The position numbers and the translations under genes were made by a program. 64,000 bases of DNA. It comes from Escherichia coli (GTDB lineage: Bacteria; Pseudomonadota; Gammaproteobacteria; Enterobacterales; Enterobacteriaceae). Location of the stretch: NCBI RefSeq assembly GCF_965641715.1, contig NZ_OZ282453.1; one strand, given 5' to 3'. The notes beneath the pieces are model-generated. The model ran no database searches and had not been told where the DNA came from. It saw only the letters and a list, made by a program, of their open reading frames with translations. Below are positions 18,586-23,442 of the stretch, piece by piece; the stretch's first letter is position 1, and the number at the start of each line of letters is the position of its first letter.

Positions 18586-18595
18586 TTATTCATTT

Positions 18596-18623
18596 GCCGG
18601 AGTGGGCGAACACCCACTCCGGC
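18596..18623. terminator. 11-bp-stem hairpin between the convergent artJ and sulfatase 3' ends
   Basis: gccggagtggg cgaaca cccactccggc; GC-rich perfect stem, no strong U-tract on either strand. Confidence 0.45.
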
Positions 18624-19851
18624 AAAATCACTTCTCTACGCTAATCCCAGGCGCTGAAACTGCTCTGGCGGCGCATCATTATCTTTCATCAACTGAATCA
18701 GCAACGCGATCATCCGGGACTCGATCACATCATCATGAATCGGATGTAGCTGCTGCGGATCGTTTTGCAGATCAAACAGCAAATGACCAAACTGATTCAA
18801 CCCCTTATATTTTTCCTGTGCCGGGATGCGTAATACCTGTAACCCTTTGGTAAAACGAAACGGTGGGGCCAGCGATAAAGCCCGCATCTCATCCACCGGA
18901 TAGCGGCTGTTCATTTTGCAGGACATCAACGTGTAGTTGGCAATATCATCCTCACGCCCCGGCAGCGCTGCACGCATATACACATAACGCCCATCAGTTA
19001 CGTTAGCATGACCACTGAAAACACCAAACATCGCCGAGCTGCGTACTGGTTCATCGTGACTGACCGTTTTCGCCAGCGGTTGCCCCTGCACATCGGGCGG
19101 CACTGGCTGTTGAAAAAAGTCATACAACGTTGGCGCCCAGTCGATCATTTGTACCAGTGCCTGTCGCCGCTCTCCTTTTACACCACTGCGCGGGTCCCAG
19201 ATAAACAACGGATTATTGGCAACTTCGTTGTAATAAGGCATCTGGTTTTTCGCCCACCAGCCATGCTCACCGAGTAAAAAGCCGTGGTCAGTGCCGACAA
19301 TCAGCATGGTATCTCGCCACAGATCGTGCTCATCCATCAGGTCGAGAATGCGCCCCAGGTTGCGATCGCACATCGACACCAGCGAACGATACCGGCAACG
19401 GATGTGCTCCACGGCCTCGTCGCTTTCCTGCACCCGGCCACGCGGCCAGTCATAATGCGGTCCATCCCAGTTATCTTCATACAAGGAAAGATACTCTTCC
19501 GTTGTGTGAAACGGCTCGTGCGGATCAAACGTTTCGATCTGCAATAACCAGTTATCTTCCGCGTGATTTTTGTGGATAAAGGCACAGCCTGCATCAAACA
19601 CTTTAGTTTGTGGAAAATCTGCTTCCTGCTGAATATATTCCCGGTTTGCCCAGTCATGGCGCCACAGACCAGAAACACCGCCACCGGTCTGCTTTTGCGG
19701 CACCCGTAGCACCTCGGGAATAGGCGGTTGCGCAACGCTTGCATGCCAGTGATCGCCTTCCTGTCCGCGCACAATCTCCCACGAACTGTAGCGATTATGA
19801 TAATTCCCGCCGCCATCTTCCCAGTAATGCAAATGATCGCTTATCAGGTGG

Positions 19852-19861
19852 GTATAGATCC
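19852..19861. repeat. target-site duplication GTATAGATCC, left copy
   Basis: Identical 10-mer directly abuts both IS186 ends. Confidence 0.7.
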
Positions 19862-21200
19862 CATAAGCGCTAACTTAAGGGTTGAACCATCTGAAGAATG
19901 CGACGCCTCGGTGCCTCGTTAAGACGATGCCTCGCGTTCTTCAATTGCGTTTTGTAGGCTGTCAGGGATACTGTCCCACGAATGGCCACCTGTAAGCTCC
20001 AGATGACCATTTTTGTTATTCTCCACAACGAGTTAGTTCTTCTTTTCGGATCCGGCACTTCTGGGGGGGAAATCCAGCGATGGCTGGATTATGTCGTCAA
20101 TTAAAAATGCGGCGAGTAGATTAGCAAATATCCACGCTTTCGCGAGTTCAGGTTCCTTTGCACGCAAAGCATCCAGGTGCAGCAAACTTTTGAGCCGCTT
20201 AAAAGCCAGTTCAATTTGCCATCGCAGACGGTAACAATCAGCCACTTGCTCTGCTGAATATTCATCTTCCGGTAATGATGTTAGCAATAGCACATGGCCC
20301 GCTGCTTCCAGCGTTTCCGCCTGAACTACTCGTCCTTTTCGACGATTCTCGCTGAGCAGTCGGGTTTTACTGATTAATGCTTTTTCGGGAGGAAGTGATA
20401 CGGCAATGAGACGTGCCGGAAAGGGAGCTCCGGCTTTTTTATTACCTGAATTGCCTATCATTACAGTGGTTTCACCGTTCTTACCGCAATCCAGCCCGCG
20501 CAGAAAACCCATCATGTCAAAGCGCATTCCTTCTGCAGTTAACCAGCGCAATCCTCGCCAGTGAACCCGGACGATATAATCAGCTTCTCCAAAAGCAAGT
20601 GAGCGGATACATTCGGGACGCGAACCGAATCCCCGGTCAGCAATGCGTATCTCGTCTGCCGTTTGCGCAAATCGGTCCAGCCGTTCAGCGTCTCTGCTGT
20701 CGGTTAGCTCAAAATCAGTGAACTGACAGGTATGAGGATCATATCCCATATGTAGTCGCCATTCAGCGCTGCCGCCCCCGGGCGCACTGATTGCTGTTCC
20801 ATCGACAAGACGCAATCTCTTTCCGCTTGTACAACCCGTAACTGCGGCGCGTACAGCAAGTGTTTGTGCGGCAAGTATGCCAAACCAGTCGGCGGCATTC
20901 CGCAGCCGCTTCAGGAGAGCCACGTCAGATAATGTTGCAACGTCATGGAGCTGAGCCCATGCAGTGACTTCACGTAATGACATCCCCCCGGGGCCGTAAG
21001 CCAGCCCCAGACGTAGCAGAGTTGCAGCATCACGAATTTCGCGGCGGCGGGTTAGAGCCCCGGCATTACGTGCCGAAGTATCCAGTTCTTCGGGCTTACC
21101 AATATGGGCCAGAATTGCTGACCAGTTATCGTGAGAGTAATTCATCGGCACGTTAAATCATATCAGGCGTAATACCACAACCCTTAAGTTAGCGCTTATG
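19862..21200 (-). mobile_element. IS186 (IS4 family) insertion sequence, 1339 bp
   Basis: Perfect 23-bp terminal inverted repeats CATAAGCGCTAACTTAAGGGTTG at 19862-19884 and 21178-21200; internal 372-aa IS4-family transposase; flanked by a 10-bp direct repeat. Confidence 0.9.
20033..21151 (-). CDS. IS186 transposase
   Basis: ORF track; MPMNYSHDNWSAILAHIGKPEELDTSARNAGALTRRREIRDAATLLRLGLAYGPGG... recognised as the IS186 transposase. Confidence 0.9.
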   Translation of the reverse strand: MPMNYSHDNWSAILAHIGKPEELDTSARNAGALTRRREIRDAATLLRLGLAYGPGGMSLREVTAWAQLHDVATLSDVALLKRLRNAADWFGILAAQTLAVRAAVTGCTSGKRLRLVDGTAISAPGGGSAEWRLHMGYDPHTCQFTDFELTDSRDAERLDRFAQTADEIRIADRGFGSRPECIRSLAFGEADYIVRVHWRGLRWLTAEGMRFDMMGFLRGLDCGKNGETTVMIGNSGNKKAGAPFPARLIAVSLPPEKALISKTRLLSENRRKGRVVQAETLEAAGHVLLLTSLPEDEYSAEQVADCYRLRWQIELAFKRLKSLLHLDALRAKEPELAKAWIFANLLAAFLIDDIIQPSLDFPPRSAGSEKKN

Positions 21201-21210
21201 GTATAGATCC
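21201..21210. repeat. target-site duplication GTATAGATCC, right copy
   Basis: See left copy; the reconstructed target tGGGtatagatCCCCgcc fits the G-run/N/C-run preference reported for IS186. Confidence 0.7.
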
Positions 21211-21798: not shown

Positions 21799-21819
21799 TT
21801 TTAAACCCTTAATATTTAA

Positions 21820-23163
21820 TTAACCCGCGTAAGGACCAAGATGGAATGTTGCAGCGATAAATTTCAGAACTTCACAAATAGCAGGCCATACGGTTGCCCA
21901 GTCAAATATTCCTGTCCAGCCGACGCCATTTTCAGCAAGCCCGGTTAACGGAATAGCCCACACCGTACCGAAGGTCTGAATAATACCCAGCAAGAACGTA
22001 CAGATAATTACGGAACGGTATCCGCCCATGCGGTTTGCTAATACGCCAATTGGACCGCCAGAGAAAAACAGAGGTACAAAGCCAGGCAATACCATAATTG
22101 GGCTGTGAACCAGTAATAAGATCCCCATCGAAAAAATGGTGCCAAAAGTACAGAAGACGAAGCCTAACGTTGCGGCATTGGGTGAAAAAGGCAACAGCGC
22201 GGCGACATCGACGGCGGGAATGGCATTAGGAATAAAGCGATCCTGCCAGCCTTTAAACGAACCGTTAATTTCGCCCACCATCATGCGCACACCCTGCAGC
22301 AAAATGACCATATACATGGAGAACTGTAAGCCAAGGTTGATGATATAGATGTACCAGGGCTTGCCTTTCGCCATTAACTGGACATTATCGATACCCGTTG
22401 ATAGCAAGAAACCACCGACAAACAGCGTCATCACAATGGCGATAGCCGTTACGTTATGGTTAAAAATCGCCAGCCACCCGGGGAGTTTCAGGTTTTCAGC
22501 ATCGTGCTTTTCGGGGTCACCAAATTTATGGGCGAATTTGGAGAAAAACCACAATCCCAACATCTGGTTATGAGCAATGGTAAAACCGGCATCTTTGGTA
22601 ACTTTGGCAATGGGCTTAACAATGAGCGTGGTGGAGAACGCCCAGAATACACCCGTTAATATTCCGGCAATAATAATGGATGTAGTCCAGCTAAAACCCA
22701 GCCAAAAGACAATCAACCATAATACCGCCTGAGAATGTGAAACACCGGTATTCCCTGTCAAAAATATCCCTTTGGCACCAGTATACCGACCAAATAATAC
22801 CAGCAGCAGGTTGGTAAAAAACGCCAGTACAAATACATAACCGACATAACCAAAATTATCCCCCAACGCAATTTGCGTTGCCGCTTTCATTGCGTAGGAA
22901 TCCATTAAATATCCGTGAACACCATAGGCTTTACTTACGGCTTCTGCTACCGGTTTAAATGTTGCGGAAAACTGGAAACCACCAAATAACACCATCATTA
23001 ATCCCACCATGGCGCTGACCATGCCGGTAATAATTTTTATTGGCGATTTCTTATCAAGGGCATAACCAATACCCACCAGCAAACCAATTAAAATTGCCGG
23101 TTCAGTTAAAAACGTTTGAATAACATCTATGAATTTGGCAAACATCGTCGGAACGCCCTCCAT
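21820..23163 (-). CDS. PTS EIIC permease, L-ascorbate (UlaA/SgaT) family, 447 aa
   Basis: Polytopic membrane protein sharing UlaA-like motifs (FKPV, NLKLPGWL, GVRMMV, LPGFVPLFFS); first gene of the IIC-IIB-sulfatase operon. Confidence 0.85.
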   Translation of the reverse strand: MEGVPTMFAKFIDVIQTFLTEPAILIGLLVGIGYALDKKSPIKIITGMVSAMVGLMMVLFGGFQFSATFKPVAEAVSKAYGVHGYLMDSYAMKAATQIALGDNFGYVGYVFVLAFFTNLLLVLFGRYTGAKGIFLTGNTGVSHSQAVLWLIVFWLGFSWTTSIIIAGILTGVFWAFSTTLIVKPIAKVTKDAGFTIAHNQMLGLWFFSKFAHKFGDPEKHDAENLKLPGWLAIFNHNVTAIAIVMTLFVGGFLLSTGIDNVQLMAKGKPWYIYIINLGLQFSMYMVILLQGVRMMVGEINGSFKGWQDRFIPNAIPAVDVAALLPFSPNAATLGFVFCTFGTIFSMGILLLVHSPIMVLPGFVPLFFSGGPIGVLANRMGGYRSVIICTFLLGIIQTFGTVWAIPLTGLAENGVGWTGIFDWATVWPAICEVLKFIAATFHLGPYAG

Positions 23164-23353
23164 AAGCGTACATTTCCGTTGTCAATGCATGAACCTTCTG
23201 CTGACGTTAATAATGTCTCAGGAAATTTTGTGTTTCGCTAAGCAATGCCTCTGTATGTATTCGGTAAGTGCACTGTAGTAATCAAAACAGTTCAATTAAA
23301 GATCTTATTTGATTATTTGTGATTTGATTTGCAAAAATAGAGCAATATATAAC

Positions 23354-23389
23354 CGTGATCGATCGGTTATTATTAATCGATCGATCACG
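23354..23389. promoter_or_regulatory. GATC-dense inverted repeat upstream of the PTS IIC gene; candidate operator or Dam-sensitive regulatory site
   Basis: cgtgatcgatcgg-ttattattaa-tcgatcgatcacg: 13-bp arms matching 12/13 around a 10-bp AT spacer; four GATC sites within about 30 bp. Confidence 0.4.
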
Positions 23390-23442
23390 ATTATTATTTT
23401 GAGTGAATAGTTGTTGCCGAAAAATTTACTGCCGTGATGTAT

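Follow-up and report, generated by a model that had tools for sequence, protein, structure and literature searches.

A window of 64,000 nucleotides from Escherichia coli (contig NZ_OZ282453.1 of assembly GCF_965641715.1) carries, between the core genes artJ and rlmC, an operon of three minus-strand genes that encode the EIIC (permease) and EIIB components of a phosphotransferase system (PTS) of the L-ascorbate family and, behind them, a sulfatase, whose gene is interrupted by the insertion sequence (IS) IS186. Judging by how consistently such genes occur together, we are highly confident in predicting that permease and sulfatase work as a single functional unit, referred to here as the module. 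The genes that recur beside the module in other bacteria lead us to propose, with about even confidence, that it handles a sulfated form of ascorbate, L-ascorbate 2-sulfate being the likeliest one.

The pairing of the two activities is seen from both directions. Sulfatases that are 60-68% identical to that of the window occur in Firmicutes and Olsenella, each encoded behind an EIIC and an EIIB, and the EIICs linked to them are 54-69% identical to the window EIIC and 37-40% identical to UlaA. Without exception, sulfatases of at least 60% identity adjoin an EIIC of this type, and relatives of 53-59% identity never do. In the reciprocal test, a metagenome scan seeded with EIIC sequences only, 60 loci could be evaluated: a sulfatase gene was adjacent in all 59 loci in which the EIIC was at least 50% identical to that of the window, and the one locus without a sulfatase had an EIIC of 32% identity. 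Of 32 non-enterobacterial lineages, 21 have an EIIA_2 gene next to the module, and two protein clusters (P0083 and P0044) combine both proteins in one chain, with the EIIA at the C-terminal end of the sulfatase; this places the sulfatase in the cytoplasm as a partner of the PTS. Genes for the maturation of sulfatases (anSME or FGE) adjoin the module in 10 of the same 32 lineages; in the enterobacterial locus L120 an anSME gene (TIGR03942, 473 bits) lies three genes away, and a gene of the TauE family (PF01925) adjoins the module in L096 and L097.

These associations also bear on the nature of the enzyme. That it might be mainly a phosphatase or a hydrolase of phosphonate or phosphate esters (e.g., of an ascorbate 2-phosphate type), or else a passenger gene, we regard as very improbable: enzymes of the alkaline phosphatase superfamily are promiscuous, the phosphonate monoester hydrolases 4upk and 2vqr are among the matches in the PDB, and there is a weak Pfam match to Phosphodiest (E 0.012), but the full sulfatase signature is invariant, and it is FGE, anSME and TauE that co-locate with the module. 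A passenger gene is ruled out by the 59 of 59 coupling together with the EIIA fusions.

To characterize the genomic context, we clustered all neighbors of 32 representative loci; counts by lineage, as given above, pool the members of each lineage, and those that follow refer to the representatives. The most frequent partner is a DeoR-type regulator (20 of 32), followed by EIIA (18), a SorC-type regulator (8), an ABC-type ATPase that is probably unrelated (7), anSME and UlaG (6 each), UlaF (5), UlaE, a TauE-like protein, a second sulfatase and a Cof-type phosphatase (4 each), and UlaD (3). The only catabolic genes that recur are thus ulaG, ulaD, ulaE and ulaF, which points to a sulfated ascorbate, and no glycoside hydrolase, lyase or amino-sugar gene is recurrent beside the module in these loci. 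When lineages are counted, a UlaG orthologue, with or without UlaD, UlaE or UlaF, is found within 10 kb of the module in 8 of the 32 non-enterobacterial ones, against a chance expectation of approximately 0.5% for a single-copy gene in such windows, and these orthologues are 55-73% identical to UlaG of E. coli K-12. The initial annotation had suggested a sulfated sugar derived from host mucin or glycosaminoglycan; given that ulaG, ulaD, ulaE and ulaF are the sole recurrent catabolic neighbors, this is probably the wrong class of compound.

In several loci the module and the ascorbate genes are closely interleaved. Neobacillus niacini (L015) has the order IIA-IIC-IIB-sulfatase-ulaG-ulaD-ulaE-ulaF on one strand, a Clostridium (L025) has ulaG-IIA-IIC-IIB-sulfatase followed further on by ulaF-ulaE, and a third locus (L141) reads IIC-IIB-sulfatase-IIA-ulaG. 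In Bacillus sp. SD088 (L009) there is a divergent DeoR-IIA-ulaG-ulaD-ulaE-ulaF-EI operon, and in Bacillus sp. FJAT-50079 (L023) a single ulaGDEF set precedes two PTS permeases with one sulfatase apiece, and then EIIA, FGE and a second regulator. The last of these loci is worth describing in its own right: positions 66-14399 of L023 hold ulaR-ulaGDEF, two permeases of the L-ascorbate family, two EIIAs and an FGE, and the second sulfatase (463 aa) is of C-S-P-S-R type and belongs to another subfamily, with a relative in four loci (cf. L009, positions 12195-13514). The presence of this second sulfatase is a hint that the sulfated, ascorbate-like substrates may number more than one.

Several observations weigh against a sulfated ascorbate as the substrate. 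Three quarters of the lineages have no ula gene within 10 kb of the module; in several of the loci that do, the sulfatase-linked EIIC is the sole EIIC in view and might also carry plain ascorbate. The active-site loops of the AlphaFold model of the sulfatase (overall predicted local distance difference test, pLDDT, 72.7) are poorly modeled, with values below 50, and the promoter region of the operon has no significant similarity to the ulaA/ulaG control region of K-12 as judged against 300 shuffles. Finally, the neighbors of the non-PTS relatives of 53-59% identity indicate that the wider sulfatase family is not specific for ascorbate, so that another sulfated carbohydrate is possible. These relatives occur in Paenibacillus, Actinobacteria, Chloroflexi, Planctomycetes and Lokiarchaeota, have no PTS neighbors, and variously adjoin permeases of the ATP-binding cassette (ABC) type for sugars, FGE, anSME, enzymes of glycoside hydrolase family 3 (GH3) and other sulfatases. 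As a group (L026-L090) they form an unusually conserved and apparently cytoplasmic sulfatase family, which includes metagenome-assembled genomes of Lokiarchaeota and is often accompanied by FGE or anSME; we found no characterized member of this family of 53-59% relatives.

The alternative that follows, in which the same architecture handles some other sulfated carbohydrate (a hexose, hexitol or sugar acid from mucin, glycosaminoglycan, plant or alga), we consider unlikely, though by no means negligible. The sulfatases that best match in a sequence search of solved structures are mucin-desulfating and GlcNAc-6-sulfatases (7p24 and 5g2v, E 1e-21 to 1e-23), the ABC permeases beside the non-PTS relatives are of CUT1 type and accompanied in the family by the GH3 enzymes, and most module loci lack ula genes within 10 kb. 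However, the PDB matches are distant (12-18% identity in a fold search) and do not separate subfamilies; no matching hydrolase, lyase, deacetylase, isomerase or kinase recurs beside the module; a PTS could not phosphorylate a 6-O-sulfated hexose at O6; and half of the ascorbate pocket of UlaA is kept in the EIIC. An attempt to derive the subfamily of the sulfatase from structures likewise gave no assignment, as dozens of S1 sulfatases come out of the fold search with equally good matches, all of 12-18% identity.

A further possibility is that the module supplies sulfur and not carbon, i.e., that an aryl or enol sulfate ester is imported and its sulfate released, in the manner of the arylsulfatases of sulfate starvation, with no dedicated pathway for the carbon skeleton. 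The enzyme is cytoplasmic and Cys-type, like AtsA of Pseudomonas, many loci have no catabolic genes nearby, and the module of E. coli and Salmonella has neither a regulator nor catabolic genes, all of which would suit such a role. Nonetheless we think it quite improbable: the partners of the module are DeoR (20 of 32) and SorC (8 of 32) regulators and ula genes, with no genes of cys or ssu type; a PTS spends phosphoenolpyruvate (PEP) on the carbon skeleton; and if the TauE-family proteins of L096 and L097 are anion exporters, as we suppose, sulfate would be discarded.

The properties of the encoded proteins can be set beside a role in handling sulfated ascorbate. The sulfatase matches PF00884 (2.5e-28) over residues 4-334 and SGSH_C (8e-9) in Pfam, and a match that begins at residue 4 leaves no room for a signal peptide. 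It carries the signature C-x-P-x-R-x4-T-G as C49-M-P-A-R-R-E-L-H-T-G, and residues C49, P51, R53, T58, G59, D9, D277, H278 and K290 are invariant in all 16 of the sequences compared (62-100% identity). Against the named NCBIfam types it scores 112 bits (arylsulfatase PRK13759), 104 bits (choline-sulfatase) and 106 bits (PehA), below the respective cut-offs of 481, 433 and 900, and it is therefore a member of no named type. The EIIC is of the EIIC-GAT family (PF03611, 5.5e-97) and exceeds the cut-off of NCBIfam model NF009550 (964 bits against 583), but at 321 bits it falls below that of the UlaA model NF006919 (380) and is therefore not a UlaA proper. The EIIB matches PF02302 (1e-10) and has Cys11 in FVCGYGVGSS, as expected of an EIIB. 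Relative to K-12, the EIIC is 39% identical to UlaA and the EIIB 29% identical to UlaB, in agreement with the initial annotation, which had called them UlaA-like and UlaB-like and the third protein a Cys-type sulfatase, the last assignment being supported by PF00884 and the predicted formylglycine motif C-M-P-A-R at 21308-21322.

We compared the substrate pocket of the EIIC with the list of residues that contact ascorbate in E. coli UlaA (PMC6048161). The window protein keeps Y87, H194, R288, D314 and F362 and differs at seven positions (T86S, H135N, I136T, Q139S, Q195N, I358V and M410I). In every sulfatase-linked EIIC the same five residues are kept, and H135, I136, Q139 and Q195 are replaced by N, by A, T or S, by A or S, and by N, respectively. 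The pocket thus looks like an ascorbate-like site that has been made roomier, which would be weakly consistent with a sulfated ascorbate. On the side of the sulfatase, PTS-linked members have a Gly-rich insertion (residues ~140-147, PQKQTGGG) together with R226, K436 and H123, all of which the non-PTS relatives lack; these clade-specific residues weakly suggest an added phosphate-binding feature.

L-ascorbate 2-sulfate is the known natural sulfate ester of ascorbate, a vitamin C metabolite of animals and a routine entry in animal metabolomics, and its O6 is free for phosphorylation by a PTS. In the pathway we propose, phosphate would pass from EI and HPr to an EIIA encoded elsewhere, for which UlaC is the obvious candidate, then to EIIB and on to the substrate bound in EIIC, so that sulfated ascorbate would be imported and phosphorylated on O6. 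The cytoplasmic, formylglycine-dependent sulfatase would then strip the sulfate to leave L-ascorbate-6-phosphate, which would enter the chromosomal Ula pathway through UlaG, UlaD, UlaE and UlaF. To our knowledge, L-ascorbate-6-phosphate is the sole substrate of UlaG, and the occurrence of ulaG beside the module would be most simply explained if the sulfatase yielded that compound from a sulfated, PTS-phosphorylated precursor. L-ascorbate-6-phosphate is also the inducer that releases UlaR, so that the downstream pathway would be induced automatically. The ula regulon of E. coli is located elsewhere on the chromosome (K-12 locus L010), and the EIIAs linked to the module in other species share 28-52% identity with UlaC; that UlaC serves the module, and that UlaR might control it, are predictions.

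The segment of the window that holds the operon is bounded by artJ (17854-18585, plus strand; identified from the list of open reading frames (ORFs) and the ArtJ annotation in the syntenic loci L001 and L002), which converges on the operon, and by rlmC (23443-24570), which flanks it upstream on the same minus strand. Reading in the direction of transcription, rlmC is followed by an AT-rich upstream region (23164-23442, minus strand, 34% GC) that contains blocks conserved between E. coli and Salmonella in the alignment, such as TTTTTGCAAATCAAATCACAAATAATCA; by the intact gene for the EIIC (21820-23163, minus strand, 447 aa, PF03611), which is of the L-ascorbate (EIIC-GAT) family and belongs to a subfamily separate from UlaA; and by the intact gene for the EIIB (21478-21798, minus strand, 106 aa, PF02302), with its P-loop cysteine in ILFVCGYGVGSS. 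The sulfatase gene comes last, as a 5' fragment of codons 1-89 (21201-21466, minus strand), which includes the C49-M-P-A-R motif, and a 3' fragment of codons ~90-493 (18636-19861, minus strand), which holds the region of the invariant residues D277, H278 and K290 and lacks its own start codon. The intergenic gaps of the operon are 21 and 11 bp. As the initial annotation had stated, there are three minus-strand genes in operon arrangement, and no EIIA or maturase gene accompanies them: between artJ and rlmC we found no EIIA, maturase, regulator, tRNA or integrase gene, and no sulfatase maturase gene in the remainder of the window either. Between the convergent artJ and sulfatase genes lies a hairpin with a 14-bp stem (18593-18626; RNA fold -27.7 kcal/mol, z -8.4), which is also the first sequence with no counterpart in K-12 (the alignment stops at 18592) and is probably a terminator common to both genes.

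The element that separates the two sulfatase fragments (19862-21200, minus strand) is an IS186 of the IS4 family: it is 100% identical to IS186A of K-12 over 1343 bp, it has 23-bp inverted repeats (CATAAGCGCTAACTTAAGGGTTG), and the product of its transposase ORF (20033-21151) scores 133 bits with the NCBIfam IS4 transposase model (cut-off 115). The 12-nt direct repeat GGTATAGATCCC borders it at 19851-19862 and 21200-21211; because the outer base of each copy can also be read as the end of the inverted repeat, the target duplication is 10-12 bp, so that identity to the reference, terminal inverted repeats and target duplication are all in evidence. Deleting the element along with one of the two target repeats gives an ORF of 1482 bp, whose 493-aa product agrees residue for residue, in the printed output, with the intact RefSeq sulfatase WP_001201595.1 (locus L001). 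The two fragments thus join into one sulfatase, as had been anticipated, and the proposal that IS186 inactivated the enzyme and spared the transporter is upheld: the gene is split after codon 89, the reading frame of its 5' part now continues into the IS and yields a stub of 102 aa that retains C-M-P-A-R and has lost the remaining catalytic domain, and, since the sulfatase gene is the last of the operon, those for EIIC and EIIB, upstream of the insertion, are untouched. Based on this arrangement, the permease should still be makeable in this strain and an imported compound would no longer be desulfated; should the permease be expressed, its substrate would accumulate in trapped form, as a sulfated sugar phosphate.

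The IS186 junctions of this strain recur in none of 5426 complete E. coli genomes, and since the sulfatase gene is uninterrupted in all 566 genomes that carry the operon, the disruption is specific to this strain; the identity of the element to IS186A of K-12 suggests that the insertion is probably recent. In its sequence, inverted repeats and 10-12-bp target duplication it is like other IS186 insertions of E. coli, from which it differs in that its site is private. For this strain alone the finding is hence an ordinary one, a private and probably recent IS186 insertion that knocks out the final gene of an accessory operon. Shortened E. coli sulfatases are also present in the protein collection (P0077, P0031, P0036 and P0020, of 323, 378, 355 and 416 aa), in clusters of up to 148 member sequences, though some short forms may be artefacts of contig ends, and one other complete genome (H60) has an IS1 in the EIIC/EIIB region; together these cases suggest that decay of the operon may recur.

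In K-12, rlmC and artJ are adjacent and convergent, as the initial annotation had stated, with a spacer of 198 bp that consists of sequence of the repetitive extragenic palindromic (REP) type, and the alignment to K-12 breaks at position 18592 of the window and resumes at 23450. Among the 5426 complete genomes, the 566 that have the operon, always on the chromosome and in a single copy, include O157:H7 and O145:H28 and answer the call for intact versions elsewhere in the species. Their EIIC-EIIB region is at least 99% identical in 401 genomes and 95-99% identical in 10, and 155 have an allele of approximately 91% identity at the same site. The same potI-ybjO-rlmC/artJ-artM site holds the module in Salmonella (L012, S. 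enterica subsp. arizonae, and the metagenomic L104 and L146), where the module proteins are 95, 85 and 87% identical to those of the window and PotI, YbjO, RlmC, ArtJ and ArtM are 93, 80, 87, 91 and 94% identical. In a further enterobacterial contig (L118) the module adjoins rlmC, and in an Enterobacter-like group (L098, L120 and others) it lies elsewhere, between dsdXA and a yidE-like gene. Next to the module and the anSME, the Enterobacter-like L120 (6131-9505) encodes two small membrane proteins along with one protein of 471 aa; the latter matches no NCBIfam model and from its sequence resembles a putative beta-propeller of arylsulfate sulfotransferase type.

The operon had initially been described as an inserted islet, a view that is probably wrong. 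No integrase or other mobility gene, tRNA or flanking repeat is present in the segment, and its sole island-like trait is a low GC content (38% in the EIIB gene, 45% in the EIIC gene and 34% upstream). The shared site in Salmonella, a divergence like that of the flanking core genes and the absence of mobility hallmarks argue that the module is ancestral; it was probably present in the common ancestor and lost from K-12 and about 90% of E. coli, although the ~91% allele and the low GC leave room for an old recombination event, which may have contributed. A search of the K-12 artJ-rlmC spacer for the scar of a deletion returned only chance matches of 8-11 nucleotides and no remnant of the module.

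The upstream region also contains a palindrome with perfect 12-bp arms, CGTGATCGATCG-N12-CGATCGATCACG (23354-23389; RNA fold -28.1 kcal/mol, z -6.8), whose arms are conserved in Salmonella arizonae. It is probably the terminator of rlmC and would insulate the operon; its four GATC sites are clustered targets of Dam, and it could also act as an operator subject to methylation-sensitive regulation. Candidate operators in common with the ulaG-ulaA control region of K-12 were rejected, because, of 300 shuffles, 27 scored at least as well as the 14-mer AATCAYAAATAATC and 16 at least as well as a gapped 26-mer. A scan of 18400-23700 with sigma-70 and terminator consensus sequences gave 5 promoter-like sites against 8.1 in shuffled sequence, no more than chance would provide. 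In Salmonella LT2, an intragenic sigma-54 binding site has been reported in STM0884 (PMC3844500).

Outside the operon, other segments of the window also differ from K-12. A 2.5-kb segment between ybjQ and ybjP (11380-13942), missing from K-12 and present in 1128 of the 5426 genomes, contains a minus-strand gene (11535-13337) for a protein of 600 aa that has pentapeptide repeats in its C-terminal part; RefSeq names it "pentapeptide repeat-containing protein", and it has only a weak HalA-like match. Between rcdA and the small RNA gene rybB there is an insert of 0.8 kb (35120-35897), found in 71 of the 5426 genomes, including O145:H28 and O157:H16; its size suggested an IS1, which is ruled out by its content, a gene for a 183-aa hexapeptide-repeat protein resembling serine acetyltransferase (35287-35838, plus strand). 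A 1-kb insert between rimO and dgcI (47153-48148; 1138 of 5426 genomes) carries a toxin of the RelE/ParE family (47373-47759) and an overlapping helix-turn-helix antitoxin (47749-48078, MqsA/NadS-like). In the lysO-aqpZ intergenic region (606-955), a stretch of approximately 275 bp aligns to the K-12 sequence in the opposite orientation; its identity there is only 90.6%, compared with 97-98% in the adjoining sequence.

The module is conserved in gut Firmicutes, Salmonella, enterohaemorrhagic E. coli O157/O145 and Shigella, and we tentatively suggest that in it a PTS devoted to a sulfated vitamin can be recognized for the first time, one that would let bacteria harvest an excretion product of host vitamin C. 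If so, the corresponding genes of O157:H7, O145:H28, Shigella, Salmonella (STM0884-0886) and many gut Firmicutes, which bear no annotation beyond "PTS IIC / PTS IIB / sulfatase", would gain a concrete function that can be tested cheaply, vitamin C fermentation would gain a feeder branch beginning with the sulfated vitamin that animals excrete, and the sulfatase would be a clear case of a formylglycine enzyme acting on a phosphorylated substrate inside the cell. In E. coli, cytoplasmic Cys-type sulfatases such as AtsA undergo maturation through an activity that is not known to have been identified, and a function for the module would bear on that maturation system as well. In the literature that we could search, we came across neither a study of what the locus does nor any connection of ascorbate sulfate with a PTS of bacteria. 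A survey of 2011 mentions, with no interpretation, a sulfatase "inserted" in the ula regulon of Sebaldella (PMC3219644), and a survey of 2012 describes from sequence a lactose-type PTS with a sulfatase, a sulfatase-modifying enzyme and a TauE exporter in Streptococcus pneumoniae (SPH1922-1929; PMC3302838).

Among known systems, the closest to the module is UlaABC-UlaG/D/E/F of E. coli, with which it shares the EIIC-GAT and PTS_IIB families and half of the UlaA pocket; relatives of the module in other species lie within or adjacent to ulaG/D/E/F operons and, like the Ula system, have a UlaC-like EIIA and DeoR-type regulators. It differs in that a sulfatase always follows, in that H135, I136, Q139 and Q195 of the pocket give way to smaller residues, and in its score below the UlaA cut-off, and the enterobacterial module, unlike Ula, has no EIIA, regulator or catabolic genes of its own. 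The pneumococcal SPH1922-1929 system, itself uncharacterized, resembles the module in that genes for a PTS permease lie together with those for a sulfatase, a maturase and an exporter of TauE type, but its PTS is of lactose/cellobiose type, it has a neighbor like phosphosulfolactate synthase and it has no link to ula. The S1 sulfatases BT3177 (7p24) and BT4656 (5g2v) of gut Bacteroides share the fold and the catalytic signature at approximately 15-18% identity; they are secreted or periplasmic and act on glycans before uptake, whereas the sulfatase described here has no signal peptide and would act after import by the PTS. AtsA of Pseudomonas aeruginosa is likewise a cytoplasmic Cys-type enzyme, but is part of a regulon for sulfate starvation and is not partnered with a PTS. 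Cumulatively, these comparisons place the operon of the window as an annotated and fairly common accessory operon whose predicted function is a variant of the known Ula system.

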